A stretch of DNA of 64,000 nucleotides from Alphaproteobacteria bacterium (GTDB taxonomy: Bacteria; Pseudomonadota; Alphaproteobacteria; UBA8317): the NCBI GenBank assembly GCA_038131935.1, contig JAYPQH010000030.1, forward strand, positions 94,302 through 158,301, in the 5' to 3' direction. This document shows positions 17,190 through 64,000 of this stretch, in pieces. Position 1 is the first letter of the stretch, and every line of letters begins with the position of its first letter. The notes below the pieces were generated by a model. The model was not told the DNA's origin, did no database searches, and saw nothing but the letters and a program-made list of their open reading frames with translations. The position numbers and the translations under genes are program-made.

Positions 17190-17262
17190 CTTGCATATAT
17201 GAAAAAACGCAATATTTGTGGTGAAAATTCTTGTGAGAAATTAAATAAAATAACAAAAGTAA

Positions 17263-19522: not shown

Positions 19523-20269
19523 TTGTTCAAGAAGCTTGTTCCCGTCACAAAAGATGCGCACAAGGCGTTCAAAATGAAACCGCTTGTTGATTTCAAGTTT
19601 GCAGGAAATGTACATTTAGCCTCTTTGATGGCACATGAGTTTGTTCGTGCAGCGTCAGTTTACCCAATAATCTTTGTTGAAGATGGTTCCGATGGGTTTC
19701 GTCCGGTTGCGTTAATGGGATTGGTACCTGAACAAAATCTCTTCATTGATGATGATGGAAATTGGAATGCCTCATACATACCAGCCATTATTCGTCGATA
19801 CCCATTCGCTCTGGCTAAGTTAGGGGATGGTGATCAGTACACTGTGTGCCTTGATGAAGAAAGCAGTTTATTTGCGAAGAAAGGTGATGGCAAACCGCTG
19901 TTTGATAAAGATGGTGAGCCTACAGTGGTTATAGATAACGTTAAGAAATATTTGACAGAGCTACAGCAAATGGATGTGTTCACAAAAGACTTTTGTAGTT
20001 TTCTGAAAGAACAAAACATGTTCACACTTTTGAACATGCGGGTAGTCGATGATGAGCAGCTAAAAACTATCACCGGTTGTTATGTTGTTAACGAAGAGCG
20101 TTTGAACAACCTATCCGATAAAGCTTTCCTTGATGTAAAACAAAAGAATTTTCTGCCCGCGATTTATGCGCATCTTCTATCTCTATCGCAGGTTGAGCGC
20201 TTGTCTGTGCTTAAACGTGAGAAATTAGCTCAAGCCAGTCTGGCTACAGACAAATCATCTATGCACTGA
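19523..20269 (+). CDS. SapC family protein
   Basis: AGGAG RBS with TTG start; EFVRAASVYPIIF, PVALMGL, YIPAIIRRYPF, YAHLLSL. Confidence 0.9.
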   Translation: MFKKLVPVTKDAHKAFKMKPLVDFKFAGNVHLASLMAHEFVRAASVYPIIFVEDGSDGFRPVALMGLVPEQNLFIDDDGNWNASYIPAIIRRYPFALAKLGDGDQYTVCLDEESSLFAKKGDGKPLFDKDGEPTVVIDNVKKYLTELQQMDVFTKDFCSFLKEQNMFTLLNMRVVDDEQLKTITGCYVVNEERLNNLSDKAFLDVKQKNFLPAIYAHLLSLSQVERLSVLKREKLAQASLATDKSSMH

Positions 20270-20285
20270 ACGTTGAATAAATCAT

Positions 20286-20984
20286 TTAAGAGTGCTGATC
20301 GTATGTTAAAGAGGAGGATTGGCTGCCATTAAGGTAATGGACACTCGAAATGGCGATTGCGTAGAACAGTTGGAGCCATTTACGATCGTTAAGCATAAGA
20401 GCAGATCTGTCGGGTAACCGATTGAGGCAATTTAAATCAACATAAAAGTACTTATTGCGGGCTGTTGTATCTCCAACCGGTTTCAGTAAGCCAACACGTG
20501 ATGCAACAAACCCTAGTTCCTGTGCTTCGCGTAACCCTTTTGCTAACAAACTAAATAAAGCCATAAGGTTTTGGGTTTCTGTGGTGTAATTCCCGTCTTC
20601 AGAAAAAATCGGGAAATATCCAGATTCACAAAAATAGGGAGAATTTTCATCTACAAAGATCTGTGCTTCTTCTTCATTTGAGCCTTTGATCAGAAATGGG
20701 TATATTCTCAGCAAGCTTGGAACTGCACTTAATTTTATAGACCCTTCTTGACAGACCAGTTTGTTCCTCTGATTTGACGCTCCGATAACCACGGTTGGGG
20801 TGAATATGTCCTGCGAGTTTTCATGTCTATGAGTGAATACAATAGGAAAGAAGCCGGATAACGTCCAGATCTCGGATAGCGTAACGTCGATTTCAGAAAT
20901 TTGAAGCGCGAACTTGAAATCTGTGACAGGTGTAAACCGCATATTGCGATGTTTTCTGCTGTTAAGCGGAACGAAGCTAGGCAT
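20286..20984 (-). CDS. Divergent SapC family protein, last gene of the secretion operon
   Basis: VPLNSRKHRNMR, FPIVF, VPSLLRIYPF, LNRLPD...LQLFYAIAIS; overlaps the secA-like stop. Confidence 0.75.
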   Translation of the reverse strand: MPSFVPLNSRKHRNMRFTPVTDFKFALQISEIDVTLSEIWTLSGFFPIVFTHRHENSQDIFTPTVVIGASNQRNKLVCQEGSIKLSAVPSLLRIYPFLIKGSNEEEAQIFVDENSPYFCESGYFPIFSEDGNYTTETQNLMALFSLLAKGLREAQELGFVASRVGLLKPVGDTTARNKYFYVDLNCLNRLPDRSALMLNDRKWLQLFYAIAISSVHYLNGSQSSSLTYDQHS

Positions 20985-22893
20985 CCCTCTTCCTTATTTC
21001 TGCCTTATTGAATGGTAGCGCTCGATGGAGCCAATCCTCATTGTCAAGCAGTTTAAGACGCTGTTTAAAAGAATTTTTCTCAAATCGATTTTGACACAAA
21101 CGGACAATACTTTTCATAATTATGCCTTCGAATTTGGGAAACATTTTCAAAACTGTAGAAAGGATCATCATTTCGAATACTCCCATTTGATTGCGGAAAA
21201 GTGCGTCATCTAGGCTCATTAATTTAAGCACACGGCCTGGGTCCCCTTGGCGCCCGCATCTACCGGTTAATTGACGGTCGATCCTAGATGATTCATTTGG
21301 TTCCGAGACAATCACATGCAGCCCTCCTTTAGACAGCGTTGCTTGATCTAATTTAATATCAACGCCTCGACCAGCCATATTGGTGGCAACGGTGACGCTT
21401 CCTGAAGTCCCTGCTTTTTCAATGAGCTGAGCTTCATTATCGTGATTAATAGCGTTTAAGACATTGTGCTGGATATTTAATTCGTCAAATATTTCCGAGA
21501 CCATCACACTATCTGAGACTGTTTTAACACCAACCAGAACTGCCTTGCCTTCTTGCTGGAGTTTTTTTGTTAAGTTTGCGACAGCAAGTACTTTTTGTTG
21601 TCTTGATTTACAGACAATTGGCTGTTCTTCGATTACTTTTCTCTTCCGGTGTCTTGGTATTTGAAGAACAGGAGTGTCGTAGACATGCCAGAACTCGGTG
21701 AAAGACTCTTTGGCAGTGCCAGTTGTGCAGGCAAGCTTTGGAAAGAGACGGAAAAAATTTTGAAAGGTCATTTGTATAAGAGGAAAGTTTGGATCAGTTA
21801 AGGGAACGCCCTCTTTTGTTTCTATGGCCTGATGCAAGCCACCCGAGAGAGTTCGTTCTGGAGTCAGGCGTCCAGTAAACTCGTCTATTAACACGATCTT
21901 TTCATGCTCTACAACATAGTGCACCCCCTTTTGGAAAAGCCATCGTACTTTCAAAGCTTGCGTTAAAAGGTCAATTACGCGCTCTGGACTCTGCCAGCCA
22001 GCAGGAGGCTTATTGCTTGATTTCGACATCATGGTTTCTGCATCGACAAGTAAAGTGACGGTTTTCCGCCTGTGGTCTAGTTTGAAATCTATTGATTGAC
22101 GGAAATTGCTGCTAGTTTTTGACGCCCAAGTTACTGCCTGATGAAGCCCTGGGATGGGTTTTGGGGCAGATATGATTAAAGGTGTCGTTGATTCATCAAT
22201 TAGCATACTGTCTGCCTCATCCACGATGGCGGAATGAATTCCTTTTTCTAGACAGATTAGGCCATCATTTTTTCCTGTTTGCCTTTTGTGCAATAGGTCT
22301 TTTAAAATATCAGCCAAAAGCGTTTTAGGCGTCACATACACCACAGAACTTTGGTAATTCTCCCGCCGAACTTCTGTGGTTTGTGTTTCCACGCACGCGC
22401 CGACGGTAAGCTGAGCATGCTCAAAAAGAGGGGCCATTTCCTCAGCGTCTCGCTGTGCTAAGTAATCGTTAGCAGTTAAAATATGACACGGCTTGCCGGA
22501 CCACCCCAGAAGGACACTGGCCATACCAACAGTGAGGGTTTTGCCTTCGCCAGTTGCCAACTCAGCCAAATAACCCCGGTGTATCGCAAGAGCCCCCATG
22601 ATTTGCTCTTTGTAGGGTTGTAAACCAAGACTTTTCTGGACCAGTATACATATTAGCGCTACACAATCGATCAGACGACCTTTCGCTGTTAATGGGTCGC
22701 GCCGAATTGCCATACGAAGGGATTCCAGTTCTTGGTTCAATTCATCACTACCACTCAATAGAAGTTGTCCCATAAGGGCTGAGACTTGATTAGCTTCAGT
22801 TTCAAGTTTCTTTAGTTGTCTTTTGCTAGATCTGGTCCTCCCGTATAGTTGGTACACGAATGAATCAAAACCTTTTTTACGTTCAGAATTCAT
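20977..22893 (-). CDS. Short SecA-like DEAD ATPase (accessory SecA paralog)
   Basis: ELATGEGKT, TANDYLAQRD, IVDEADS, LIDEFTGR, GLHQAIETKEG, ATNMAGRGVDI, RIDRQLTGRCGRQGDPG; only 638 aa. Confidence 0.93.
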   Translation of the reverse strand: MNSERKKGFDSFVYQLYGRTRSSKRQLKKLETEANQVSALMGQLLLSGSDELNQELESLRMAIRRDPLTAKGRLIDCVALICILVQKSLGLQPYKEQIMGALAIHRGYLAELATGEGKTLTVGMASVLLGWSGKPCHILTANDYLAQRDAEEMAPLFEHAQLTVGACVETQTTEVRRENYQSSVVYVTPKTLLADILKDLLHKRQTGKNDGLICLEKGIHSAIVDEADSMLIDESTTPLIISAPKPIPGLHQAVTWASKTSSNFRQSIDFKLDHRRKTVTLLVDAETMMSKSSNKPPAGWQSPERVIDLLTQALKVRWLFQKGVHYVVEHEKIVLIDEFTGRLTPERTLSGGLHQAIETKEGVPLTDPNFPLIQMTFQNFFRLFPKLACTTGTAKESFTEFWHVYDTPVLQIPRHRKRKVIEEQPIVCKSRQQKVLAVANLTKKLQQEGKAVLVGVKTVSDSVMVSEIFDELNIQHNVLNAINHDNEAQLIEKAGTSGSVTVATNMAGRGVDIKLDQATLSKGGLHVIVSEPNESSRIDRQLTGRCGRQGDPGRVLKLMSLDDALFRNQMGVFEMMILSTVLKMFPKFEGIIMKSIVRLCQNRFEKNSFKQRLKLLDNEDWLHRALPFNKAEIRKRDA

Positions 22894-22898
22894 TTTCT

Positions 22899-25070
22899 TT
22901 AGATTCTAAAATGCTTTTGAAGATATTGACTTAATGCTCGATGTATTTGTGAGGCCAATGGTTCTGGAGCAAGCTCAACCCTCAGTGTTGCTAAGCCACC
23001 ATGCATCAGTTTCACATTGGTATCGCCTTCATTGAGCATAATTTTCGATTTAATTTGAAAAAAGGGCTCTGTTGCCTTGAGACCCGTCGGATCTGATGGT
23101 TCTACTGCAATTGAGCCGCCGCCTGGAATGCCGAGGGCTGGGGATGGAAGTATGCCATTATCATGTGGAATTATTTCTAGATCAGTTGTGGTGAGTGTCT
23201 CTCTTTCTTGACCATGTAACTTCAATGTTGTTTCTGCAATAAATGATGCGAAAACATACGTCTGAACCTGTGGGATGACTCCTATAAACTCCCAGGTATG
23301 ATCGTGGGTTACAGTTCCAAGTTGCTGGCCCCGAGCGATGAATTCGCCTGGTGATAACCGCGTTTCATGGCTTGTCCAGATTCCACTCTCTGGTGCTTTA
23401 ACCTTGAGTCCTAGAATGTCGTTTTCTATTGTCGTAAGGTATTGATTAACTGAATCCAGTTGTTCATTAATTGGTTCCATTTCGTGTTGATTGTTTACAA
23501 GCGCGTTCTGGAGTCGCTGCTGGAGCTCTTTTTGTTTTGCTTGAGTCGCAGATTTTTGGAAAAAAAGTTCAGGGTTTTCGAGTTGAATAATAATTTGGTT
23601 CGCAACTAATGCAGTCCCGTTGTCTAGGAATTCATCAGAAATATAGCCACTAGTGGTGCTATATACTTTTTGCGTTGACGTAGGTTTTATAATCCCTGAA
23701 ACACGGAAGCTATTGTCTACTGGGATGGCAGTAAGTAGAGCTGTGGATGTGACTAAAATCAAGATACTTATACTAAACACTCTCTTCCGCTGGCCATCTA
23801 GACTGTCATCAAATAGAAAATATTTTATCAATTTTAAAAGCGGTACCACAGCAGTTAATATAATGACTGCAATTGCTATGAGTAAGCCCAGATCGAGATA
23901 CTGATTTGCGATAAAGGCGATTATACCGATCATCAGCGCAATCCAATAAAACATGCTGACAATCCCATAGACTGGAAGGATAATACTCTCGCGAAAGCTT
24001 TGTGCGACTGATTTTGCTCCTCGAACTCCCAAAATATAGCGTTTTGTAAGATATTTTAATTGATTGCGAGACTTCATAAACAAATTAGGTATGTTGAGAA
24101 TATCGACCAAAATATGATAACCGTCGAAACGAAGCAGCGGATTAGCATTGAACAGCACAGTTGATACGCTTGCGGTAAACATAATGTTGTAACAGAAAGA
24201 GTTCAGTAGACCTGGTGCGGTTGCTGACCATATTAATAGGGCTATTGTTGCCACGCCCAATTCAACACCTATGCCAGCTGCAGCAACCAAGAGTCGCTCC
24301 CTCCTGTGTCTGAACCCCCAGCTTGAGCTGGCGTCACAATATGGAATTGGAGTGAATAGGATGAACATCAGACCAATGATGTGAACCTCTCCTCCGAAAT
24401 ATTTGCAGAGCGCTCCATGGCCGATTTCGTGGATAGATTTAGTGACAGCGAATCCCATGTAGAGAAGGAACAGGTTATCGAAATCAAGAATCCCCTGTGA
24501 GGGATCGAAGATTATCTCTTTATTATTTAAAAATGTTATAATGCCTGAAACGATAAGTAGGAGATATAGAAATAATCCGATCGGTCCGAACATGAATTTG
24601 ATAAATGGAAGTGTTTTATTGAATAACCTATCAGGATCCCAGAGAGGGATTTTGATTGACATAAAACCTAGAAAAGTAGATAGCCGTTCTTGTGATTTTT
24701 TACTATTAAAGCGCTCTATGAAACTCTCGGTGTCCGATAATTGATCATAGATTAACATATTGGAAAGATGCAGTTGCGCTAGGATTTGAATTACTTCTTC
24801 CTGTGAGAGAGTAGTGTTTTGATCGCTTTCTACTGTTTTGTACCAAACTTCCTCTATTGTCTGATCAATGGACATTCTGGCTACAAAATTATATGCCTCT
24901 TCGGAGATTTTAAACCATTCACTGTTCATTCCATCGCGCATCACGTACCAAACCCGTGAGTCAAAAAGCTGCCTTTTTACTTGTACACTGGGACGTAACT
25001 CACAACGCAGTGAATATACTCGGTGCCAAGAGGAAGAAAAAGTTTGGGTTGATAAGTCGACCGTGTTCAT
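22899..25070 (-). CDS. Fusion of PqqD/RRE-like N-domain, M50 (site-2) intramembrane metallopeptidase and HlyD-like periplasmic domain
   Basis: HEIGH zinc motif, NANPLLRFDGYHIL (NxxPxxxxDG), multiple TM helices, C-terminal coiled coil plus lipoyl-like halves (KAPESG). Confidence 0.85.
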   Translation of the reverse strand: MNTVDLSTQTFSSSWHRVYSLRCELRPSVQVKRQLFDSRVWYVMRDGMNSEWFKISEEAYNFVARMSIDQTIEEVWYKTVESDQNTTLSQEEVIQILAQLHLSNMLIYDQLSDTESFIERFNSKKSQERLSTFLGFMSIKIPLWDPDRLFNKTLPFIKFMFGPIGLFLYLLLIVSGIITFLNNKEIIFDPSQGILDFDNLFLLYMGFAVTKSIHEIGHGALCKYFGGEVHIIGLMFILFTPIPYCDASSSWGFRHRRERLLVAAAGIGVELGVATIALLIWSATAPGLLNSFCYNIMFTASVSTVLFNANPLLRFDGYHILVDILNIPNLFMKSRNQLKYLTKRYILGVRGAKSVAQSFRESIILPVYGIVSMFYWIALMIGIIAFIANQYLDLGLLIAIAVIILTAVVPLLKLIKYFLFDDSLDGQRKRVFSISILILVTSTALLTAIPVDNSFRVSGIIKPTSTQKVYSTTSGYISDEFLDNGTALVANQIIIQLENPELFFQKSATQAKQKELQQRLQNALVNNQHEMEPINEQLDSVNQYLTTIENDILGLKVKAPESGIWTSHETRLSPGEFIARGQQLGTVTHDHTWEFIGVIPQVQTYVFASFIAETTLKLHGQERETLTTTDLEIIPHDNGILPSPALGIPGGGSIAVEPSDPTGLKATEPFFQIKSKIMLNEGDTNVKLMHGGLATLRVELAPEPLASQIHRALSQYLQKHFRI

Positions 25071-26918
25071 AACCAGAGTAATTTCCGAATAAAATTGATC
25101 GTGCGATATGTCATCGACCAGATAAGCGGCTGCGAACCTGTTTTGATTTTAGCGGTACCTCCCATACCAGGTCGCCACCAACCCTTTTTGTCTGTCTCAA
25201 ATTTACCTTTCGCTACAAAAATATTTGAACCATTTTTTACCTGCGCGATTGGATCGATGCTAGTTAACGTGAATGGAATTCGTTCATCAGGACGCCCAGC
25301 AACCAGTAATTCCCCAGAGAGATCATCGTTTAAGAAATGCATGTCGTTTTGATTGATCTCTAGCTCTAGGTACAGCTCATCTGTATCGGCCAATCGCATA
25401 AGCATATCGCCACGCTTGACCGGTGAGCCTAGTGCTTGTGTTAAGTCTCCCTCAACAACAATCCCGTTACGTGGCGCGCGAATTTGTGCACTCGCCATTC
25501 GAAACCTAACAAGATCTAGCTTCGCCTGAGATTGGGCGAGTTGAGCTCTCGCAATTTGCAATTCTGCAAACTTGCCCGTTGCAAGAGACCTTTCTATTTC
25601 TGTTTGATGACGAGCAGTTTCCGCGACAGCAACTTTCTCTTCCTGGATTAATTCTCGTATATCCATTTCCACGAGTTTATCATCTTTTCGGACTGAGCTA
25701 CCTAATTCAACATATACGTTTGACAGGAAACCATCGAACGGAGCGGGGATTATTATCGCGTGTACAGCGCGAATTGTAGCTTTTGTATCAATACGATGAT
25801 TAGTTTCAACGGCAAAAAGTGTAGAGAAGATAATGAGACCCGCGATGGCAAAGAGTTTAGCGGTAATTTTTCTAGGGCCAAATAACCATGTAGTTAAATT
25901 GATAAGTTTATAAAATAACTGGATAACAAAAGGTCTGCTTGAGTTTAAACTTCTCTCTAGAACTGGTCCTAAGGTAGTGACTAAAAATTCAATTTGTTTT
26001 AACTCATTATCATTTGGGTTATTCCCATTGAACTCAAGGGTTAAAACACCCAAGGTATCTTTTAGACCACGTATCGGTATTGACACTAGACTCTGATTTC
26101 CATGATTTCTGGAAAATATTTTATGCTGGCGATATATATAAAAATCCATTTGTTCAGATGGATAGGTGATGACTAGATCTTGGTCAGCGGATTCTTCCAT
26201 GGCGTTGATTAAATCTTGAGCAAGTGAAGATCGTCGATCAAAATTCGCTGATTGACTTATCGCTTTCAGGCTAATTCTTTTTCGAACGAAAATACCTAAA
26301 CTGACCCGATTTGATACCAGATGTGCGGCTAAGGAATTGCAGAGGAAAAAACAGGATTCTAAGAAACTGTCTTTTGAGCAGAGCTGGTAGACTATTGAAA
26401 TTACTTTGTCATTACTCAACCTCAACGGTTGGTCGGTTAAGCTATCCACTAAAGTTTGGTTTGACTTCCCTCCCAGATCGCGAATTGCGAACTCCATCAT
26501 TGTTCTCTGAGCCGGCTGCATTCCAGAGGTGATACTTTTAATTTCAACCCAGGCCAACACGGTGGATCTTTTCCCAAAGGACCCTTTATCGAGAGGTAGA
26601 ACATGTAATACCCGAGTTTCATCAACCTGTTTGGTTTGCTTGGTGTCTGTTTGATAGGCTAGTTCACAGGTTTCTAGAAGTTCTGATGCATGGGGTAGAT
26701 AGATCAATTTGAGCTTGAGGGTATTTATGATTTGCCTTCCAAGATTGGGTATCTATCGAACGCTCAAGGTGCAAAACAATTTCAGCCATAAAGCACTTGT
26801 GGATGATGCTCAGGAGATGCACTCTAACCTTTTCATTCTCCATGGTTGAGTCGCTGATCAAATTTAGCGAATATATAAGCGAAGTCTCAATATTTTGCAC
26901 TGAGTTGAGATCATTCAT
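25067..26918 (-). CDS. HlyD/MFP family protein with N-terminal GAF-like domain (apparent indel near 26693)
   Basis: ORFs 26664-26933 and 25067-26707 join at a C4 run. GAF-like AMEESADQ...SLVSIPIR...LGVLTLE, one TM helix, then APFDG...IRAPRNG...WRPGMGG. Confidence 0.8.
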
Positions 26919-27744
26919 TTGATGGCGTTTCATTTGTTGGCCTTAACTCGGCCGGAGTTCCTGGGATGATTTTAAAATCAGAATTATCTACCTCTGCAAA
27001 CAGCTTTCTCAGTCCACTCGCCGCATCTACCAGCGGAGATACGTAAGTTATTAAAGCTCTTCTTTCTACTACTTCTCCATGTTGCATTAACCGGAGGATG
27101 GCTTCCTCTGTGGCCATGAAACGATAGTCTTGAGATATAGGGAAGGTACCCACAAAGCGGATTGTGGACACGTCGACAACGTTGACTAGTGTTTCTTGAG
27201 GTTGAATGGTCTCGCCTCTTTCGCCATGCACAAATGTAACGACCCCAGTCACCGGTGAAGTTAGTTGTTTTTGCTCGAAATACTGTTCAGCAAGTTTGTG
27301 ATCAATTTCAGCTAGCCTCTTTGAAGCAATCAACGACTCCAACTGTGCCTTAGCAGCGCTGAGTGCGAGTTCTTCATCTTCGAGTTGCTTGACTGAGATA
27401 CCACCCGTTTCAGCTAAAATCCTTCCCTCAGACACTTGTTTGGCTAGCACATCTATTCTTCCTCTTACCTCTCTTAATTCGGATTGGTCTTTCAAGATGA
27501 TCCACTTTCTTTGACGTTCCAAATTTTCAATTGAGCGATCCAGTTCTAGTAAGACTTCTCCAGCTGTTATCTGATCACCTTCAGTAACAAATATTTTATC
27601 GATAGTCCCTTGCACTGGAAAGCTTAAACTAGCCTGGCTCTTGGGCTCTGTGATACCAATTGCAAGCCCTTCTCCATAAGCAGACGAAATATAACAAAGA
27701 CATAGAAAGGTGGGGAAAATAAGCTTGGGTAGGTAGTGACCCAT
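26911..27744 (-). CDS. Efflux RND-type periplasmic adaptor (MFP)
   Basis: Signal peptide, LSFPVQGTIDKIFVTEGDQI, coiled-coil hairpin, LTSPVTG, SPLVDAASG. Confidence 0.88.
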   Translation of the reverse strand: MGHYLPKLIFPTFLCLCYISSAYGEGLAIGITEPKSQASLSFPVQGTIDKIFVTEGDQITAGEVLLELDRSIENLERQRKWIILKDQSELREVRGRIDVLAKQVSEGRILAETGGISVKQLEDEELALSAAKAQLESLIASKRLAEIDHKLAEQYFEQKQLTSPVTGVVTFVHGERGETIQPQETLVNVVDVSTIRFVGTFPISQDYRFMATEEAILRLMQHGEVVERRALITYVSPLVDAASGLRKLFAEVDNSDFKIIPGTPAELRPTNETPSNE

Positions 27745-27745
27745 G

Positions 27746-29380
27746 TCACTTTTGTCCAAAAATGTTGTTGACCTGCTCACTCAAATCCCCTTGCGCTGAG
27801 TAAAGCTGAATGAAAGCCTTTGCATATTGGGTCGACGCTTCAACTTCATTAATAGTTGCTTCTAAATTTTTCTCCTCAGACTGCAAAACCTCGATTATGT
27901 TTCCTCTGCCTTGCGCTAAACGTAACGAGGCTACTTCGAGTTGTTTTTTTGTTGAGTTAGCAATTTTTCTGGCGTTGAGCCACACTTTCTCTGTCTGAAG
28001 GGCTGTCTTGTGGCCGACTAAAACTTCATTTTCAAGGTTTTGTCGTTGGCCTTGAAGAAGCAACTCTGCTTTACGTTTTTCCAGACTGGCCTTTCTAATC
28101 TTGGCATTGGCACCTTTGTTGGCGCCCAATGGCATCCTGTACTCTATCGATATTCGGCGCTCTGGATGGCCAGCCATGTCGTTAATCCTCAATGCGCTGG
28201 TGGCAGTTCCTGCTTGTTGAGACCATCCGGCATCCAATCGAATATCGAGTGTGTCACGAGCCATATCTGACGCTTGGTCAAGTTGAAGCAGGGCACGTTT
28301 GATCGCAACTTTTTGTGCTTTGATGTCGTAACGAGTGTTGAGGGCTACGGTATATAGTTGTTGCCAATCTGGTATGTGATAGATCTCTGTCGGGAGTATC
28401 GATGGATCAAACTGGATTTTATCCACCGTAAGGTTTCCTTCGGGAGCAAGAAGGATGAGTTCGGTTTTGAACCGTATCAAGTCTCGTTCAGTATTTGATA
28501 TCAGATTCTCCAGCTTATTCAGGTTGATTTCGATATCAATTTCAGACGATCGCGGAAGACGTCCATTTCTGATTAAGGTACTGACCTCCGTTTTGAGTTT
28601 TGTTAAGATGGCTACGCGGGCTTTTAACCTTTCCAAGATTAGTTGGGTTTTTAAGGCATCTATATAAACGATTGCGGCCTGTGTGGTGATCAGGTTCCGT
28701 TGGTCGAGGGTTAAGTGTTCTTGAATTTTAGCTTCCAATTCAGCGATAGCAATATCCATGTTGGTGATTTTGGCTCCTGCACCGCGCATCAGTGGCTGAA
28801 CAATAGATAACCTTAAGTCACTTCGGTACTGATAGTTGTCCATGGTGCCGGCTTTCTGCCTGTTCAAGGATGAATCAATCGAAATCTTCGTGCCGTAGCT
28901 CAACAATTTTGAGACTGTGCCCTTCAAGTCAGTTTGTTTATCAGGATACGGGTCTGGTGATCTTCCTAATAACTGATCTTCAACCGAGAGCGGTGATAGG
29001 GTGTTCCCTGCTGATGATCTTACTGTCAGCTTCGGTTCATAGATCCCAAACTGTTCAATAATATTCTCGCGAGCGACTTCTTCATCAAGCTGCGCCATTA
29101 TGAGTGATCTATTTGAGTTCAGAACCGCATTCAGGAACATTTCAAAGGAGAATGCTTCGGACTTGCCCATAGGTTGACTAGCCAACGAAGGGTTGTGTAG
29201 CCCGAGGCAGAGTGCCAGGGAAAAGTATGTGAACAATTGTCTGTTACAGCCGCAAAATGAACGAGCATTCAAAATAAATGGTCTCAGCCGGCGCCAAAAA
29301 AATAGTTCAACATAGCTTGTTCCTACTTCAACGAAGTTATTGTCGATTCCAAAAAGCAATACTTCAAGGATTTTTCCCAA
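27746..29380 (-). CDS. TolC-family outer membrane channel (true start probably downstream of 29380)
   Basis: Outer-membrane efflux pattern AVLNSNRSL, LSIVQPLMRGAG, ALNTRYDIK, EYRMPLG, IQLYSAQG; signal-like segment ending LAS. Confidence 0.88.
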   Translation of the reverse strand: MGKILEVLLFGIDNNFVEVGTSYVELFFWRRLRPFILNARSFCGCNRQLFTYFSLALCLGLHNPSLASQPMGKSEAFSFEMFLNAVLNSNRSLIMAQLDEEVARENIIEQFGIYEPKLTVRSSAGNTLSPLSVEDQLLGRSPDPYPDKQTDLKGTVSKLLSYGTKISIDSSLNRQKAGTMDNYQYRSDLRLSIVQPLMRGAGAKITNMDIAIAELEAKIQEHLTLDQRNLITTQAAIVYIDALKTQLILERLKARVAILTKLKTEVSTLIRNGRLPRSSEIDIEINLNKLENLISNTERDLIRFKTELILLAPEGNLTVDKIQFDPSILPTEIYHIPDWQQLYTVALNTRYDIKAQKVAIKRALLQLDQASDMARDTLDIRLDAGWSQQAGTATSALRINDMAGHPERRISIEYRMPLGANKGANAKIRKASLEKRKAELLLQGQRQNLENEVLVGHKTALQTEKVWLNARKIANSTKKQLEVASLRLAQGRGNIIEVLQSEEKNLEATINEVEASTQYAKAFIQLYSAQGDLSEQVNNIFGQK

Positions 29381-29439
29381 GAACGCTTTTTTTGACGTGT
29401 GAGCGAGCTACCTTTATTTTTCTTATTTCTGATCGCCAT
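29323..29439 (-). CDS. 38-aa mini-ORF paralogous to the giant protein's N-terminal leader
   Basis: MAIRNKKNKGSSLTRQKKRSWEKSLKYCFLESTITSLK* versus giant MAAKGKKNRRSWLTRQKKRTWENS; preceded by a GAGG RBS. Confidence 0.5.
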   Translation of the reverse strand: MAIRNKKNKGSSLTRQKKRSWEKSLKYCFLESTITSLK

Positions 29440-29753
29440 AAATCCTCGTTAAAAACACCCAATTATCGTATGAATTATCCATGCATTCCTCACACCACTC
29501 GATATTATAAATCCTTCAACAAATAATTCTACCCAACTGCCAATAAATTCCATATATTGGATCAAGGAAAAAAATAAACCAATAAGTTATTGAAATATAA
29601 ATTCTATTTTCGGAGCAGGGCAGGGGTTTTAATTGCTTGTCATCTGAGATCATCAATTACACAGGTGCTCATTAGCTCCACCATCAAACTCATCAATTCG
29701 CTTTGATTTTGGGCAAGATCTTGATCAATTTTTATCGCATAAAGATAAACAGC
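29368..29753 (-). repeat. Left arm of a ~385-bp diverged inverted duplication
   Basis: Reverse complement aligns colinearly with 30509-30890 (ATCTTGCCCAAAATCAAA, TGGAGCTAAT, AGCAATTAAAA, TTATATTTCAAT, TTGATCCAAT, TGGGTAGAATTATTT). Confidence 0.9.
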
Positions 29754-54800: not shown

Positions 54801-57800
54801 ACACGATCAAAATCAACGCAAGGTCTGGAGACATCTCGTCCACCCTAGGCTCGTCCGGTGTCGTGATCGACGCCGAGGGAACCTTGAGCCTATCGGCTAC
54901 CGGTTCGGTCGGTACCACGGGCCTATCTGGGGGCGCGCTTAACCTGGCCGCGGGCTTGCTCGATATCGACACAGGCTCGGACGTCTCGGTACGTGGCCAC
55001 GGAGACCTGGTGGTCGGCTCGTTTGTGCTCTCCGGCCAGGACGTCTCAGTTTCTGTAACAACCCAAGCATCGGATACAAAGGACGGCGACCTGGGTCTGT
55101 CAGCGGATATCGCTCTTGGCCAGACTGCGGCGGTTTATCTAGGCGCGGCAGGTGACCTTTTTGTGACGTCGTCACGCTCGGTTGATTTGGGGGATGGGGT
55201 CGCCACACTCGACGCGGGCGGCATGATCGTCCTGGGCGACGCCTCCTCCATCACCGCCGCCGATGACCTCTCTCTTGAGGCTGTGGGGACATCACGATGG
55301 GTGCCGGTAGCCTCGTCGAGACCACAGGGGACGTTCTGTCGGTCTCGACAGAGGGAACACTCTTGGTAGAGCGCTTACGTGCCAACACGATCTCTGGGAC
55401 GGTCCTCGTCAGTGCAATCGGGGATGTGTCCGTACGGGCGTTATCTGTCGGTGGGTCACACGTGACTGCTGACCAACTGGTGATCAGCAGTCGCGACGGA
55501 TCAATAGGCTCATCCGTCGGATTAAGTGGGATGATCTACCTGAACGCCGACGTAAACTCTTTGGTAGGGTCCGCCGACACTGGGCTCGCAATTCGTGCGA
55601 CCGGAGACCTCGAGATCACCGCGCAGCCGCCTCTGGGCCATGACATGGTGAGCGCAGGAGGTCTCATTGGCCGTTCTATGTCCGCGGGGTATCTTGGTTT
55701 GTCGACCTCTTCCGGAGACTTGTACCTCGACGTGTTGGGGGCCCTGACGGTTGCATCTAGTTCCGCCAACGGCGACGGGTTCGGGATCCATTCGGCCCGC
55801 GACCTGACCGTCACAATCTCCGGTGACCTCTCGCTGGGCGCCGGTATCGGGGCCGCGGACCGACTGACTGTTAATGTCGGTGGGTCGGTGACCGCGGCCG
55901 GAGGACCGGGGCTCGAGGCCATTATAAAAATCGCGAAGGGCACCACCGAGCTGCCGGCTGCTGACGATATGACCTGGACCATGATGGCCGGGCAGGATCT
56001 CACCCTCGACGTAGACGGCGCCGTGCCCGGTCTGTCGGTCGCGGCAGACACCCTGACCGTCTCGGTAGATCAGGGCGACCTAGCGCTAGCCGTCTCCGGG
56101 TTCTTTGACTATGGCGGGGATGTCGAGCTGACCAGCGTCGTTGCTAGCGACGGTGACGTGGCGGTCATGGCACGTGGGTCGGTGTTAATAGTCGACGTAC
56201 GCGCCAAAAATTTGGGCGAGGTCGGTATTGTTTCGGTGGATGGTGACGCGACCATCTCTAGCCAGTCGTCGGTCGCGTCGGTGGGTACGGTCGCGTTGGC
56301 GGGCCTCGCGGTGCGTGCCGCGGACACGGTCCGTGGGACGTCGGGGATATCGACCGCCAGCGCACGGACGGTCTACTACGGAGGGCCAGCGTCTCCGTCT
56401 GTCGGCCGACGGCGCAACCGACTCGCTCAACCCGGGCGCCTCGGGCTACGCGGGGACGGTCAGCTTCGTCAGCGACGGAGTCATCGAGGTCGACGAGGAC
56501 CTCAGCGCGGCCGGTGTGGTTGTCACCGAGCCGGCGCCTCTTCCGAGCTCACTTTATTACTATAGTAAGTGGGATGCAGCTTACGCTGTCAGGTTTGGTG
56601 GTTCGTCTCCTGACGGCGAGGATGTCACCAATCTGATCGACGGGACAAAGTTCTCGAAGTACCTGAACTTTGGGGGGCGTGATACCGGTGTCTACCTCGA
56701 CTACGGCTCGCCGGTGGTCAAGAACGTCGCCGAGTTCGTCAGCGCGAACGATGCACCCCACCGTGATCCCTATAATTTTAAAATCTACGGGACCAATCAG
56801 CTGGGTAGTCTTTTTGGTTTACCTAATTACGCCACAGCGAGCTGGACCCTACTCGATAGTTCGGTCCGGACCAACCTGCCTACGGCCAGAGAGACGGTCG
56901 CCCCGCTGGCCGAGTTCGAGAACCAGACCGCCTACCGCTACTATAAGGTGGTGTTCACGGGGCTCCGTGGGGGTGGGTCCGATGACTACGTCCAGCTCGC
57001 GGAGCTGACCCTCGCGACCAAGCCGACCCCAACCACGACCATCGACACGAGCTTCAGCTTCGAGCTCGACGCGGGGGTCGGGATCGACTGGCAGACCCAG
57101 CAGACCACGATGGACAACGTCGTCACCACCTCGGACGACCTCGCGGTAACCGTACCCATCTCGGGTGGGGTCTACCAGGGCGACTTGGTGATCGACGACA
57201 GTTGGCTGGCCGCCAACCTACCGGGGGGTGGCTCGGTCGCGGCGACCGGCACGATCTTCCTCGACCAGGTTGACCCATCGTCGTATGTAACATTGGACGT
57301 TACCGCAGCTGGCCTGATCGGTGACGCCCAGAACCTCACGCTGACCGGCTCAATCACAGGCGATGTCAGCCTGTCGTCCTCGGGGTCTTTCGGGATCGGC
57401 GACCTGACAGCGGGCGGTAACCTCAGAGCCGACGCCCAGCTAGGGCTGTCGGTCCGTGGCGAGATCGACGTCTCCGGATGGTCACACCTTGCTACCGGCG
57501 GAGATTTATCGTTCGAAAACGGTGCCGTCGTCGCTACCTCGTCGCTGTCGCTTGACGTTACGGGAGACGTTGCGACCACCGCCAACGCCGGTACCGTGGA
57601 CCTGGGGGACACCGGTGCGATCTCCGGACACGTGGGCGGCGATGCGTATCTGCAGGAACGTTCGGGAGACCTCCGTCTTGGTCGGTTGTCGGCCACCGGT
57701 GACATGGCAATCACCTCAGCTACAGGCGACCTGGTCGGGCTACAGACGGGCCCCGGGGCCACACTCCGGTCCGGTGGTACCCTGACGCTGGCAACCCCCA

Positions 57801-60800
57801 GCGGCTCGGTTTTGGATGATGACGGCGGTCCGCTCGAGACTATCCAGTCGACTCTTTCGTTCGATGTGTCGGGTGACGTCGATATCAGGAGCACCGGCAC
57901 TGTCCGGCTCTCCACGTCCAGCGCGGGTGGACTGGTTGATATCTTCTCGACAGGCGTTCTCCGAGTCGATGGACAGATGGACTCGAACGCCAATATGTCG
58001 TTGACCAGCTGGGGCGACCTGTCCACCGCCGCCGTGGTTACCTCGGTCAGCGGCCGTGTGGACCTCGCTAGCCTCGGTGGTGATGTGTCCGCGATCGGTG
58101 ACGTCGTGTCTCGTGGGGACGGGGCTCGACGGTACCGTGAGCCTCTACTCGGCCGGTAACCTCACGGCCACTGATGTTGCTGGCGGTGACGGTGGCGGGA
58201 TCATTGTCGAGAGTGTGTCCGGATCGGTGGCCCAGGCATCAGACAGCGTGTGGTCGGGCGACACGATCGTGATCGAATCAGACGGCTCGGTAGGGACTGA
58301 CTCGGCCCCCGTCACGATCCTCTCAGACACATTAGCTATCGAGTCGATGACCGATGTCTGGGTGACCTCAGCGGAATCATTCTCTGTCGGATACGAGACA
58401 CTTTCTGGCCGAAACCTATCAGGAATAACGTCGGTTTCCGGTGGCGACGTGAGCCTGTCCGTGACCGGTCCCGGTGGTATCCTGGAGGTCGATACCGAGA
58501 TCAGGACCAACGGTACGGGCGCCGTCAACCTCTCGGCTGACGGTTCGCTCGGTGTCGTTAGGCTGGGCGGACAGGTTGTTGGCTCGGGCGGTGACTTCTA
58601 CGTTAACGCGGGCGGCTCGGTCCAGGTAGTGTCCGACGGTTCGACAGCATTAGGTGACCGGGTTAGGTTCTCGGGCCGGTCGGTCTACGAGGCCAGCTCT
58701 GGGATCCGGTTTGTGGCCGTGGACGGTTCAGACACGGGCGGTTTCTTGTCGAGCTACCTCAGTGACGGGATCATCAGCGTAGTCGGCGATCAGACTTTAC
58801 TCGACGGCCAGGGTCTGATCCTGTCGGTTAACTCGGTAGACTCGTATGGCGGGCTGGAGGTTGATGGCTCACTGACACTCGCGGGCTCGAGCGAGCTCGT
58901 GCTCGAGGTCGATCCGGACTTAGACCTCAGGGGCCAGACGCTTGACCTGATCAGTGCGGGCTCCGTGACCGGAAGTTTCGGTTCAGCCCGTGGCCTGTTT
59001 GGCTATGGTGACCTGTCAGAATTCTTGAGGCTCGAGACGGTCGACGGGGTCGGAACTGACCGGGTTACTGTCAGCGAGTCCGACCGTCCGGTCGCCGACA
59101 CTCTTAAGATCACCCCGCACAACGACTCGGACGCTGACAGCCTCGGGATGCTATTTAACCCGGACTACTTCGGTGAGGGGCAGAGCTACGTGGTGGGTAT
59201 GACGCTCGGTGCGGCCGACTTCTTCACCGTCGACGGAGACTTCGTGCTGTCCCAAGACACCGCCGACGCTGCGACCACCCGGGCCGATGGATCTGTCGGT
59301 ACCGGCCTAGTCGACGCTCATCGCTGGCTGATCGGGGGCACCGGGCTTGACGGGTTCGTGGGCCTAAACGGGCCCTACCGTCTGGACACCGACCACGACG
59401 GCGACCTGGCCGACGAGTCAACCAACAGCTCCGCGGTGGGTCTCGAGCTGCAAGATATCGACGTCGGTCTGGCCATCTACCTAGATAGGACCAGTACCGA
59501 CGGGTACCTGGCCGTCTCTGCGTCGACCTCGACCGCGTCAGACGTGGGGGTCCCGGTGTTTGACGTCACGGTCAACGACCTGAACGTCAACCTCAACCTA
59601 TCGACCAGCGGTTCGTCGGTCCTCGATCTTGCTGGCGACGCCGCGCTCACGGTCCCTATTGACGCCACCGGTGCTACCACAACACTCGACTTTGATGGCC
59701 AGCGGGGCACGCTCGTGCAGGCGGCCGGAGACATCGACGTCCGGGTCGACGAGCTGATGACTGTGTCTGGCTCGGTCGCGTTCGAGCGATCCACACGCGA
59801 TCTAACGTTGGCTAACGGGTCTACGACCCGTGCCGACATGCTCAGCTTTGGTGGTGACGGCCTCGATGCACAGCTGGGCGCTGGCTCGGTCGGCCTCACC
59901 GTCTCAGATCTCGCGTTCGGTGCGGCTGTGTTTAGCTCTCAGTCACCCGACCTGGGTGACGCCCGCTGGGCGTCCCTGACAGCGACCGCCGGCGGTGTCA
60001 CTCCGTCGGCTGTTGGGTCGGCGTCGGTCGGTGCGAGCGACCTGTCGGTCGAGGTGAACATGGTCCACGGCCTACCTTCAGGTATCGCGGGAGACCGGAT
60101 GGTGATCGACTACAGTCCGGACGCAACCGGTGCAATCGATATCCTCACCGGTCCCGACTCGTCTGCGTCTATCGACTTCGATGGCTCGCTTGGGCAGCTC
60201 TTGAAGGCAAGCGGATCAATGTCGATCAAGGTCGGAGACTTCCTCGAACTCAGTGGCTCGCTCGGTTTCGAGCGGAGCCTCCAGACGGTGTTAGTCGACG
60301 GCCAGTCCGTGACCACCGAGATGATCAGCGTCGGGGGCGCCGACCTCGAGGGTTTCGTGGGCATCGGCCCGTACCGGATAGATCTCGACAGCGACGGACG
60401 GGTGGATCAAGACGAGATCAACCCAGACGCGCGCGGCTTCGTGGTCAGTGGCGTCAGTTTCGGGATGGGGACCTTCTCTGACCAGAACTCCGACCGCCAG
60501 TGGACCGCGGCCCATGCCGAGGCCGGTACGGTGGGCGGCATGCTTGGGATACCTGAAGACGTCAGCCTCGACATCTTTGACCTCGGGGTCGGGCTCAACC
60601 TGGCTGCCGCGGACGGATCAGTGATCGATTTCTACGAGATCAACGGGGACCTGAACACGCAGTCGCTGGATATTCTGGCCGGCACCGGCCAGACCGTCTC
60701 GCTGGACTTTGACGGCCAGCGTGGTGAGCTCAGGCGCGCGACCGTCGGGGCGCAGTTATCGGTCGGCGACTTCTTCCATGTGGGTGGCCAGATGGCGGTC

Positions 60801-63800
60801 GAGACCTCCGCGGTAGAAGTCTTACTCGCCGATGGCTCGGCTACGACAACTGACCTGCTGACGATCGGTGGTAGCGGGCTCAACGCGTTCGTGGGTGCCG
60901 GTGGACCGTACCGCTCGGATACTAACGGTGACGGTGTAATCGACCTCGACGACGCGATCAACCCAGACGCGACCGGACTCTCAGCGACCGGTGTCGAGTT
61001 CGGGTTGGGTCTGTTTGACGAGCCGGGCGCCAACGGCCGGTCGTGGACCGCGCTGGTCGCCAACGCGGCCGAGGTCTCCATGGTCGGGACCGAGGGCGTC
61101 ACGGCAGTGGCTAGGGCCGTGTCTGTCGAGCTGAGCAACGCAACAGACGGCCAAGGAACACGTTTGTCAGATAGCTTGGTCCTCGACCTCGCGTCGCTGC
61201 CCGGGGGAGGTCTCGCGATCGCGACCGGTCTGAGTACACAGGTGACGCTGTCCACCGAGGGCTCTAAGGGACAGCTGGCGAGGGCCTCGGGGGACTTCAG
61301 TGTGTCCGTGTCGGGCGTCGCCGAGATCCACGGGACGCTGGCGTTTGAGCAGTCCAGGGGATTCGTGAGTCTGGCCAACGGCTCTACCGTCGAGGTCACG
61401 CAGCTGACCGTCGGTGGCGACGCGCTCAGCGTGTTTGCGGGCGTTGGCGGTCCCTACTTTATCGATACTAACGGTGACGGGATAGTGTCTGCCACTGAGA
61501 CCGACCGTAACACCAACTCGGTCGGATTCGCGGTCGACAACGCCTCCCTGAGGATGGGTATATTCAGCGCGGACCGCGGCGCGGTGAGGGGTATGGATGG
61601 CGCACGCTGGCTCGGCCTCGATCTTTCCGCGACCGCGGTTGGTTTCGTGGGCACCGACTCCGTGACCGCCAGCGCATCAGACCTGTCTCTCCAGATCAAT
61701 CAGGTGCTCGGCGATACGTTTGGGATCGACCGAGACCGTTACGTGATCGACTTCGAGTCGCTCCCAGTGGACGTCGAGACGGGCTCGAGGATCGAGACTC
61801 TTGACGTGACCGGTGGCCTCGGAGAGATGATCAGTGCCACCGCTCAGCTAGAGATAGCGGTCGGTGGCTTCGCGTATCTCAGTGGCGGGTTTGGGTTTGG
61901 CTGGGGCCGTCGCCGGCTCGCGACAAGTGACGGTAACACTCATGAGCACGATGTCCTCGAGGTCGGCGCCAGCGGCGTGGTCGGCTTCGCGGGCATCAAC
62001 GGCGGTCAGTTGGTCGACACTGATGGTGATGGTGACATCGACTCGGATGACACCGTCAATCAGAACAGCGCAGGCGTAAGTATGTCGGGCGTGGATCTCG
62101 GGATGGTTTTTGCTGCCGACCGGAGTACCGGGTCGCAGCGGTTCGCGCTGGACGCCGATGTTGGCTCAGTGAGTCTCGTCGGTTTGTCTGACCTGACGGC
62201 CCAGATCGACACCGCGAGTCTGGCGCTCAACTTAGCCGGCTCTGATGGTGCGGTGCTTGACCTGTCCGGCGGGCTTGAGGTTGCGACCGGTCCAGACTCC
62301 TCGAGGACCCTGTCGCTTGACGGCGACACCGGTGAATTAATGGCCGTGAACGCCAACGTCGCCCTCGGCCTCGGTGGCGGGGTCTCGTTCTCTGGGGGAA
62401 TCAGCCTCGAGAAGTCGGCGGGTGAAGTGACACTTGCCAGCGGGGATGCCCAGATCGCGACAGACAGGCTCCTGATTGGTGGGGCCGACCTGACCGGTTC
62501 GGTTGGCGAACCCGGTGGCCTTGGTCTCGAATTCTCCGGTGTTGACTTGGCTCTGGCGGTGTTTGACGCGGTCGATGGTCAGCGGACGGCGTCTGGTGTG
62601 TCACTCGATACCCTCCAGTGGTACGCGGCGAGTGCCTCGGTCGGTGGGGCCTCGTTCCGTGGAGTAGAAGACCTCACTCTGGGTATCGATTCGCTCGCGG
62701 TCAGCGTCAACCAGGTCAATGGATCAATCGGGGCAGTCGACCCTGATGATCTCGTGATTGACTTCGCGGCGTCACCACTGACGGTGACACTGTCGTCTGA
62801 GACGTCCCGCGTGATTGATATGCCCGGCGCAGACGGTCGCCAGGTCTCCATCGCAGGAACCGTCGATCTCGCAATCGGGGACACCATAGCGCTGAGCGGC
62901 GACATGGCGTTCGCGATGTCCCGGGGCGACCTGAAGGTTTCGGGCGGCAACGATGGGTCGGTTGATGCCAGCCTGATACACGTCTCGGGCGCAGACATCG
63001 CTGCCAGATACATGTCGGCGGGGCCTGATAGTCTCGGTGTAGACCTCCAGGGGCTTGGTTTTGACCTGGTCATCGCGTCTGACCGCGGAAGTAGTGACCG
63101 TTGGCTCGGTCTCTCGGCGGTCGCGTCGAGCGCGTCATTAGTAGGCTTACAAGACACTGGGCTCGCGCTTGCTGGGGAAAACCTGGCGCTTGCGGTCAAC
63201 ATGGGTCTGGGTCAAACCGATAGTGTGATCGACTGGGCGACAACCGGAGCGGTTGGTGCATCGGGCGTCATGCTCGGTATGAACGATTATCGCCTCGCGT
63301 TGTCGGGCTCGGTTGCGATTGCGATGGATCAGGCGAGCCTCTCGGGACAGGTACTGGTGGAGGTTCATCGTGGCGATGTCACCGTCGGAGGTGTCTCGGT
63401 CGCGACCACAGGTCTCATGATCGGTGCGGATGATCTTAGTGGCTCGGTCTCCGGGGTCGAGGTTCAAGGTCTCGAGGCAGGCCTTGTCTTAGTCCGAGCC
63501 GACACTGGCTCGGATACAGACAGCCGCGGCTGGCTATCCATGCGTGCGTCCGCTGATACCGTCTCGCTAGACTCCGAGGCACTCGGTCTGCCTGACCTCC
63601 TCGACGCGACCGCGACCAATCTCCGCTTCGGTATCAACACTGGGTTTGGCCAGTACCACGGGGAGACCAATCGGTCTGTCCTAGACCTTGCGGGTGACCG
63701 TGCGATCTCAGTTAGCTCTCAGGTCGACGGTTCTGGTGCCAGCACGGTTTTGGATTTTGACGGTGCGGACGGTGTCCAAGTCTCGATCGATTTCGACGGC

Positions 63801-64000
63801 GAGATCGCTGTCGGTACGGTACTTGCGATACAGGGCAGCTTCGGGATCCAGAGGGTCGGTAACCGCCAGGTGTTCCTCAAGGACGCGGAGCAGCACGTGA
63901 CGATGGCCGCGACCACGATCGTAGCGACTGGCGTCTCAGGCCGAGCTGGCTTAAACGTTGATGATACGGGAAGCTTCCAGGGACTCAGCCTGTCTGATGG
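30818..64000 (+). CDS. Giant LEPR-XLL-leader repeat protein (putative adhesin or surface protein), >11,000 aa, incomplete at window end
   Basis: LEDRILLSAD leader motif. ORFs 30815-36349, 36383-55369, 55297-56565 and 56228-58159, plus an unlisted frame from ~58121 that is in the same phase at the window end, join by small indels with repeat continuity. Composition is Gly/Ser/Ala/Asp/Val-rich, beta-solenoid-like. Confidence 0.88.

Follow-up and report, generated by a model that had tools for sequence, protein, structure and literature searches.

A leader-bearing giant gene beside an operon for TolC, membrane-fusion adaptors, an M50 protease and a SecA paralog: a candidate export system without an ABC transporter gene

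How do bacteria move proteins of 10,000 or more residues across two membranes? The process is poorly understood. Classical type I secretion, of which LapBCE and SiiCDF are types that serve giant adhesins, reads a C-terminal signal, hence the whole chain is made before export. The window analysed here is a stretch of 64,000 nucleotides from an alphaproteobacterium of the lineage UBA8317 (assembly GCA_038131935.1, contig JAYPQH010000030.1, positions 94,302 to 158,301, forward strand). The window is the last 64 kb of this 158-kb contig (C30), its end is the contig end, and the assembly holds 67 contigs (2.48 Mb, about 90% complete). Six minus-strand genes in it diverge from a giant gene of more than 11,000 codons, and by Pfam and NCBIfam their products are a TolC-family outer-membrane factor, a short membrane-fusion protein (MFP), an MFP with a GAF-family domain, a fusion of a PqqD-like domain, an M50 protease and an MFP, a SecA paralog and SapC. 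We regard the chances as evenly balanced that this operon is a dedicated, envelope-spanning machine that exports and matures the neighbouring giant by way of an N-terminal leader. The proposal is built on gene content, synteny, intact motifs, adjacency of the giant and a locus without an ABC gene, and from these we infer every physical step.

The operon is compact (Table 1). Its open reading frames (ORFs) overlap by 8, 4 and 35 nt or are separated by gaps of 5 nt and, in one place, 203 nt, which bears out the six overlapping or abutting minus-strand genes of the first-pass annotation. That annotation had also noted the absence of ABC, RND and MFS transporter genes, and none of these families was found in the six operon proteins or in 10 ORFs of the left flank that were scanned. 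HlyD_D23 and HlyD_3 were matched by Pfam in two operon proteins. Hydropathy and family scans agree with the view that the M50 fusion is the sole polytopic membrane protein of the operon and the SecA paralog its sole ATPase-family protein. The M50 fusion has at least five strongly hydrophobic segments, the GAF-family/MFP protein has a long N-terminal extension and a single transmembrane segment at residues 281–299, the SecA paralog has one weak segment barely over threshold, and the operon's SapC has none and is soluble. A search of the Protein Data Bank (PDB) by sequence with SapC found nothing meaningful. No SecY family occurs among the six proteins; the one SecY of the genome is on contig C17. 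The true start of tolC is probably an internal TTG near 29274, immediately before a signal-peptide-like stretch.

Two domains that had been read from the letters alone, a GAF domain and a RiPP recognition element (RRE)-like domain, are assigned by way of homologues, as the window's own copies fall below Pfam thresholds. A GAF domain is detected in 27 of the 31 proteins homologous to the second adaptor. PqqD, the RRE-like family, matches 29 of the 59 N-domains taken from homologues of the fusion (best E 3.9e-5), with no other family matched in more than three. In the AlphaFold2 (AF2) model of the fusion (pLDDT 85.1) the chain forms an N-domain, a helical membrane core and an MFP with an α-hairpin, and the N-domain (residues 23–108) has a β-β-β-α-α-α topology. 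A PDB sequence search with this N-domain found nothing meaningful. Residues 25–409 match the NCBIfam daptide-type HExxH intramembrane protease (E 1.1e-51) at 176 bits, which is below the equivalog cut-off of 300; Pfam M50 reaches 17.5 bits against a cut-off of 27.2. The M50 site, HExxH followed by N..P....D (H214, E215, H218, N308, P311 and D316), is invariant in 80 sequences. The C-terminal third is an MFP that matches MexA and MacA.

PqqD-like recognition elements and M50 leader peptidases, such as the daptide protease (NF041824) and YydH/LiaK (NF058609), also belong to the leader machinery for ribosomally synthesised and post-translationally modified peptides (RiPPs), with which peptidase-containing ABC exporters can be compared as well. 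The fusion of a PqqD-like domain to an HExxH intramembrane protease suggests leader binding, followed by cleavage coupled to export. The likeness has limits: in place of a peptide the presumed substrate here is a chain of thousands of residues, the protease and an MFP form one protein, and the score lies below the daptide equivalog cut-off given above. A predicted complex of the N-domain (residues 1–140, alignment of 80 rows) with the leader (residues 1–60, alignment of 16 rows) scored 0.01 and 0.00 against a mark of 0.32 and, having no controls, speaks neither for nor against this idea.

The SecA paralog retains the DEAD motor, the preprotein cross-linking domain, nucleotide-binding domain 2 and the long scaffold helix. 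It lacks the wing domain, the C-terminal tail and the two-helix finger, the last being the part that canonical SecA uses at SecY. The protein aligns to residues 15–608 of Bacillus subtilis SecA; in its AF2 model (pLDDT 91.4) the chain ends 12 residues past the scaffold helix (586–625), and Foldseek places the model on SecA structures with TMq up to 0.81 (6itc). SecA2 proteins are among its close matches, at E 1e-94. By Pfam, SecA_SW is absent from the paralog and occurs in this genome only in the housekeeping secA on contig C18. Of 63 SecA-paralog sequences, 62 are 638–662 aa long, and GEGKT and DEAD are invariant in all 63.

The presumed substrate begins with a basic stretch followed by LEDRILLSADPLL. 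The NCBIfam model LEPR-8K (NF012209) scores 24.3 bits there against a cut-off of 17 (residues 29–49) and 29.8 bits in the genome search, in agreement with the basic, LEPR-type N-terminal leader first noted from the sequence. The giant is acidic, rich in G, S, A and D, and nearly free of cysteine (six in 11,218 residues, against a genome background of 1.1%; none in the 1844 aa of the first piece). GGxGxD occurs only three times in these 11,218 residues, and no Pfam domain was found at E ≤ 0.001 across more than 11,000 of them.

A pattern scan with one genome per species returned at least 589 relatives of the M50 fusion, and the best 80 were examined, each with flanks of at most 10 kb; a locus entered the count for a gene only if its DNA reached far enough on the side concerned. 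The 80 belong to Burkholderiales, Methylococcaceae, Magnetococcales, Desulfobacterota, Verrucomicrobiota, Chlorobiaceae, Nitrospirota, Omnitrophota, Kiritimatiellia and others, and the cassette is frequent among lineages of freshwater and sediment and among magnetotactic ones. The GAF-MFP accompanies the fusion in 69 of 69 related loci, TolC in 54 of 55, the SecA paralog in 62 of 64 and the short MFP in 61 of 65; the two loci that miss SecA (L040 and L071) do have a SecA-paralog match, within a stop-to-stop frame of greater length. SapC accompanies the fusion in 22 of 80. An ABC gene is not a conserved member: an ABC-like ORF lies within 10 kb in three of the 80 loci (L047, L066 and L079), and a search of the 60 kb that follow each of three intact giants found no ABC exporter.

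Giant genes are frequent neighbours. Sixty loci extend 3 kb or more beyond the cassette, and 40 of these contain an ORF of at least 800 aa. Where the N-terminus of a large ORF lies in the fetched DNA, the motif LE.R.LL is found in the first 260 residues in 17 of 36 (one, L077, being doubtful), a motif whose chance rate is by rough arithmetic well under 1% per protein. These motif-bearing giants stand beside 16–17 loci of Pseudomonadota, Verrucomicrobiota, Desulfobacterota and others, in three gene arrangements, and at several more loci a large ORF whose start lies outside the fetched DNA stops immediately ahead of tolC. Aligned leaders consist of a basic stretch and a core of ..LE.LE(D/P)R.LLSADPLL about 25–32 residues from the start. 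The three intact giants measure 6576, 16,090 and 7142 aa with 1, 11 and 2 Cys, and their C-termini, like that of the giant-gene tail on contig C8 of the window's genome, are unalike.

We propose that recognition of the basic leader with its LE(D/P)RxLLSADPLL core takes place in the cytoplasm and that its most likely reader is the PqqD-like domain in the M50/MFP fusion. The wingless SecA paralog would then drive the unfolded chain N-terminus first, possibly co-translationally. Passage through the inner membrane would use the M50 membrane domain together with the anchors of the three adaptors, and the M50 site would cut off the leader. By analogy with tripartite systems, the α-hairpins of the three MFPs would dock to the TolC of the operon and the chain would leave the cell. 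The cytoplasmic GAF-family domain and SapC may be accessory or regulatory.

A wider claim is more tentative, and we would place it somewhat below even likelihood. The at least 589 loci may represent a distinct and widespread class of secretion in which the PqqD-like/M50/MFP protein reads the LEPR-XLL leader and the SecA paralog replaces the ABC transporter. Chains of 6,000–16,000 residues would travel N-terminus first, maybe co-translationally, through a hetero-oligomeric adaptor ring and TolC with no SecYEG. In the window's genome, apparatus and substrate would be under the control of one regulatory region, present as two inverted copies with a TetR-like gene between them. If this were true, an N-terminal leader and a SecA-type motor would permit export during synthesis, and it would be a mechanistically new way to energise a TolC conduit. 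The cassette also offers a candidate reader for the unexplained LEPR-XLL motif.

The locus is not new to the literature, and the first-pass description of an undescribed system did not hold. Kamneva, Poudel and Ward (PLoS One 2015, PMC4452313) reported by computer analysis a conserved 'Secondary SecA_DEAD domain protein' locus with three HlyD-domain proteins, of which one resembles M50 weakly and another carries GAF, with OEP in some cases and no ABC gene. They proposed the SecA-like protein as the ATPase and the M50 protein as the membrane part, and described horizontal spread over Proteobacteria, Verrucomicrobia, Planctomycetes, Nitrospirae and Chlorobi. The window agrees with this description in a SecA_DEAD protein without SecA_SW (the protein of that report is without the wing/scaffold domain), in three HlyD-domain proteins, one M50-like and one with GAF by way of its homologues, and in the lack of ABC, and it includes an OEP protein. 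Neither 'SapC' nor 'giant' appears as a word in the paper's main text, and no substrate is named. Full-text literature searches found no later work on the cassette beyond this paper and a self-citation, and in the literature found in this way LEPR-XLL is mentioned only in passing, by two papers. The system thus belongs to a kind that is known from computer analysis alone. What the present analysis adds is the connection with LEPR-XLL giants, the PqqD-like domain, the presence of a second cassette in the same genome and the duplication of the upstream region. The window itself is one more instance of the cassette; its own contributions are a small genome in which two divergent cassettes occur together, a regulatory region in duplicate and a substrate gene that may be mosaic.

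Comparison with named systems separates the shared parts from the unusual ones. Type I systems (HlyB/HlyD/TolC) have in common with this locus an MFP and TolC and substrates that are very large, acidic, near Cys-free and repeat-rich and that travel unfolded. They differ in that the locus here has no ABC transporter, three different adaptors instead of one, a SecA-type motor, a conserved N-terminal leader, presumably in place of a C-terminal signal, and almost no RTX nonapeptides. Accessory SecA2 of Gram-positive bacteria and mycobacteria is likewise a second SecA for a few unusual substrates, and SecA2 structures are among the close matches; however, the paralog here ends after the scaffold helix, has no SecY2 or Asp partner and is linked to MFP and TolC proteins in diderms. 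West-Roberts et al. (bioRxiv 10.1101/2023.11.21.568195) describe wingless SecA_DEAD domains inside giant proteins of Omnitrophota and Actinobacteriota and propose them as an aid to export. As here, a SecA motor and preprotein-binding domain without scaffold or wing is tied to giants; in their case SecA lies inside the giant among type II secretion-like neighbours, whereas here it is a separate 638-aa protein in a TolC/MFP operon. A preprint on Chlorobium chlorochromatii (bioRxiv 10.64898/2026.03.19.712371) reports giants Cag_663 and Cag_665, with no known export signal, flanked by SapC and a TolC-like gene, and cites sapCDEF of Campylobacter fetus. It favours a SapC/TolC/HlyD route with the C-terminus first, and the one secA that it mentions (Cag_1676), suggested to be recently acquired, is not linked to the giant genes.

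Several observations weigh against the proposed machine, and they concern the membrane step, the substrate gene, the motor and ABC transporters elsewhere. To our knowledge no M50 protease forms a protein-conducting channel, which makes passage through the inner membrane the weakest step. The giant gene of the window is broken, with a codon switch at its first break, and may be non-functional or partly mis-assembled. In addition, most genes of the locus showed low or no expression in Methylobacterium extorquens AM1, for which the 2015 paper gives the genes META1p2399-2402 (PMC4452313).

The state of the giant gene raises a separate caveat about the window, to which we give a substantial chance that still falls short of even: the substrate gene of the window would not be one functional gene, being either a decaying pseudogene or a chimera of a native 5.5-kb gene with about 27.6 kb from a GC-richer relative. 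What had been taken for a single gene of more than 33 kb is not one open frame. It is divided into five ORF pieces with frame breaks between them, and at the first break, where two TGA codons stand about 15 codons apart, GC content at third codon positions (GC3) jumps from 0.37–0.55 to 0.66–0.76 (window ~35800–36400). The 26–28 kb that follow are GC-rich as no other long stretch of the 2.48-Mb assembly is (the sole sustained tract with GC ≥ 0.55) and lie at the contig end. The five pieces are nevertheless colinear with a single 16,090-aa protein of genome G003, and the sequences on either side of the first break align to adjoining residues of four intact homologues (L019, L025, L021 and G003). 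The architecture is therefore that of one ancestral gene; a natural gene, homologous recombination and a mis-join fit the colinearity equally well. As for decay, the housekeeping secA (C18, 160206–162997) and three ABC exporter genes (C1; C18, 61519–63302; C33) are each split in two frames in the same way, which suggests frequent indel errors in this assembly and speaks for these in preference to decay. The composition switch is either a natural recombinant or an assembly join of two related organisms. No near-identical relative was found across the 36.35-kb junction; the protein search reached 2500 aa, and its sole close match was the window's own 1843-aa call. The giant-gene tail on contig C8 is unlikely to be the missing end of this gene, with a GC of 0.46 against 0.63 in the last 6 kb of C30.

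The motor can be judged from genomes that were not chosen for the cassette. Among 300 genomes of the same class LEPR-8K exceeds its cut-off in five, and an M50-MFP fusion is matched in three of these five and in 11 of the 295 LEPR-negative genomes (hypergeometric probability about 8e-4, for genomes that are from different families and not fully independent), a result in favour of the proposal. All five LEPR-positive genomes have one SecA_DEAD gene (fragments only in G143), which counts against it. In G193, a genome 98% complete, a GAF-MFP, an M50-MFP and an MFP are directly followed by a LEPR-motif protein (locus L113, contig C36, 3–7321), there is no SecA paralog in the genome, and the M50-MFP is 28% identical to that of the window. 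Some LEPR-linked systems would thus do without a SecA paralog and must draw on another source of energy. LEPR leaders have their more general partner in the trio of adaptors and M50 protein and not in the SecA paralog. Two of the five LEPR-positive genomes (G065 and G168) have no M50-MFP match at E ≤ 1e-40 and no cassette gene near the LEPR gene. The only other genome in the order of the window's genome gave no match, and the best M50-MFP match in the 300 genomes is only 28% identical, so that close relatives give no comparative information. The idea that the SecA paralog and the M50 fusion together replace the ABC transporter stands in part. The scarcity of ABC genes near the 80 loci, the retention of the SecA paralog, the intact GEGKT/DEAD and HExxH motifs and the adjacent giants agree with it, and the G193 trio does not.

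These genomes bear equally on a two-step route, which we consider unlikely, in which a SecA2-like paralog would feed the giant to the one housekeeping SecYEG, the M50 protein would remove the leader at the membrane, and MFP and TolC would only bring a periplasmic intermediate through the outer membrane. LEPR-linked M50-MFP trios in genomes with housekeeping SecA only would fit any SecA serving the system. The paralog's retained motor, clamp and scaffold helix, the SecA2 matches, and a model that superposes best on SecY-bound SecA (5eul and 6itc, TMq 0.79–0.81) all point the same way. The paralog nonetheless lacks the finger and wing with which canonical SecA works at SecY, and the genome has no second SecY. 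The leader is no Sec signal peptide either, since its core carries charges and is not hydrophobic.

ABC transporters elsewhere provide the remaining points against direct export by the SecA paralog and M50 fusion. On contig C33 of the same genome (locus L105, ~7750–17693) there is a canonical LssB/LssD/OEP type I set, comprising OEP fragments, a frame-split LssB-type ABC (331 and 333 bits against a cut-off of 693), LssD and then candidate substrates, and this LssB system could act in trans. L066 and L079 have an ABC-like ORF 2–5 kb downstream, G004 has LssB about 12 kb upstream of its cassette, and a Vibrio LEPR-XLL protein with a C-terminal RTX domain points to classical type I secretion for some members (PMC10868602). 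A separate observation is that L047 (1406–5211), alone of the 80, has two same-strand ABC-like genes directly upstream of tolC, which also counts against the proposal.

On a reading to which we assign a slightly smaller chance than to the two-step route, the real pump is an ABC transporter encoded elsewhere, here the LssB-type gene on C33. The SecA paralog would then act in the cytosol only, as a holdase, an unfoldase or a targeting factor, and the M50 fusion would be a leader peptidase only. The canonical set in this genome, the LssB of G004 and the ABC pair of L047 are in its favour, as are the several ABC exporters present in every genome checked. Yet a type I secretion ABC (HlyB, LssB or PrtD type) exceeds its curated cut-off in only one of five cassette genomes; in G001, G002 and G005 the best type I ABC scores are 300–411 bits against cut-offs of 510–726. 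In three of the five, ABC_membrane genes are absent from the cassette contig, and in the others the nearest are about 12 kb and about 400 kb away. Moreover, 77 of the 80 loci have no ABC-like ORF within 10 kb, the C33 system has OEP fragments and adjoining candidate substrates of its own, and the cassette has three adaptors and a TolC of its own. In C33 the large ORFs after the type I set carry 5'-nucleotidase C-terminal and choice-of-anchor I domains and are cut off by the contig end.

That the cassette has a different cargo, a small leader-bearing peptide or an efflux substrate, and merely shares an island with giant adhesin genes is improbable: the M50 part does resemble the daptide and YydH/LiaK RiPP leader peptidases, the N-domain is PqqD-like, a 38-codon leader-like ORF precedes tolC, and no large ORF stands outside the cassette in 20 of the 60 loci whose flank covers at least 3 kb, but one motif heads the adjacent giant in 16–17 loci of several phyla and three arrangements, the small ORF has lost the LE.R.LL core, and the operon of the window has no radical-SAM or other peptide-modifying enzyme.

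The intergenic region between tolC and the giant gene is an inverted duplication of about 350 nt per arm that includes the giant's first ~24 codons. The arms are 74–82% complementary (mean column identity of the alignment 82%). In the arm before tolC lies the small ORF just mentioned, which shares 16 of 24 residues with the N-terminus of the giant, carries a frame shift and shows a decayed LE.R.LL core. At the inner end of each arm lies a palindrome, ATCAA-N6-TTGAT (29692–29707 and 30556–30571), found twice in the window where none is expected. Between the arms a 122-codon gene was placed by a protein atlas, as a lead only, with TetR/AcrR-like regulators (feature score 0.94; 26 of 30 matches in TetR_N clusters), and Pfam gave no match. 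The palindromes are candidate operators and the 122-codon gene a candidate regulator for both operons. Because copies of one ~350-nt region precede both and flank the small TetR-like gene, apparatus operon and substrate gene are probably co-regulated. Rfam on 29200–31000 returned only a chance-level match (E 0.2), a sigma-70 scan gave 6 sites against 5.4 expected, and a two-sequence consensus fold of the duplicated region was uninformative.

Table 1 Features of the cassette, its upstream region and the giant gene in the 64,000-nt window
Feature	Coordinates	Strand	Evidence or remark
SapC paralog 1 (248 aa)	19523..20269	+	Pfam SapC E 5.9e-67; converges on operon
SapC paralog 2 (232 aa), last gene of operon	20286..20984	-	Pfam SapC E 4.8e-34
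SecA paralog (638 aa)	20977..22893	-	SecA_DEAD 3.3e-75, SecA_PP_bind, P-loop_SecA
PqqD-like N-domain/M50/MFP fusion (723 aa)	22899..25070	-	NCBIfam daptide_HExxH 1.1e-51
GAF-family N-domain/one transmembrane helix/MFP (546 aa)	25067..26707	-	HlyD_D23, HlyD_3
Short MFP (289 aa)	26911..27780	-	RND_mfp 96 bits against cut-off 94.9; HlyD_D23, Biotin_lipoyl
TolC-family outer-membrane factor	27746..29380	-	OEP E 4.6e-16; type_I_sec_TolC 6.8e-15, below cut-off
38-codon ORF in inverted repeat, before tolC	29323..29439	-	Diverged copy of the giant's first codons
Inverted-repeat arm A: promoter, 5' untranslated region, leader copy before tolC	29369..29719	.	Arm comparison
TetR/AcrR-like regulator candidate (122 aa) between arms	29935..30300	-	Protein-atlas placement, lead only
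Inverted-repeat arm B: promoter, 5' untranslated region, giant's first codons	30544..30888	.	Arm comparison
Giant piece 1 (~1843 aa)	30818..36349	+	Native codon composition, GC3 0.37-0.55; LEPR-XLL motif ~30899-30961; gene start 30818 in an open reading frame spanning 30815-36349
Two in-frame TGA codons at first break	~36347-36364	+	Codon-composition switch site
Giant piece 2 (6328 aa)	36383..55369	+	GC3 0.53-0.76; no Pfam domain
Giant piece 3 (422 aa, frame-shifted)	55297..56565	+	ORF
Giant piece 4 (643 aa, frame-shifted)	56228..58159	+	ORF
Giant piece 5 (at least 1981 aa)	58056..64000	+	Runs off contig end; aligns to G003 protein residues 8006-11410

A second cassette is present in the same genome on contig C8 (locus L012, 1–15273), where the genes come in the order giant-gene tail, SapC, TolC, MFP, GAF-MFP (split), M50-MFP and SecA paralog. 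Its proteins are 32–34% identical to those of the window, less than the window's are to those of other phyla, and this low identity indicates that the two cassettes are not recent duplicates. The SapC that converges on the operon in the window is by phmmer nearer to the SapC of the C8 cassette (364 bits) than to the operon's own SapC (57 bits). A weak Fil_haemagg_2 match (E 1.2e-5) in one C8 piece is the only Pfam match on the giant and the C8 tail. Contigs C43 and C53 are filled with giant-gene fragments.

To the left of the operon GC drops to 0.40–0.43 from about 15 kb (cassette tract 16000–30000), against 0.46–0.50 in the left flank, and an HNH endonuclease gene (15055–15702) lies at the left edge of this low-GC tract, an arrangement consistent with an acquired island. 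The first 15 kb of the window carry ordinary housekeeping genes, among them those for an M20 peptidase, a DapD-like protein, an amino-acid kinase, an acyl-CoA dehydrogenase and YidC. Within this part (window 1–15000) GC skew changes sign near 8 kb and yidC (11733–13658) has small ORFs alongside; it may be a replication origin region.

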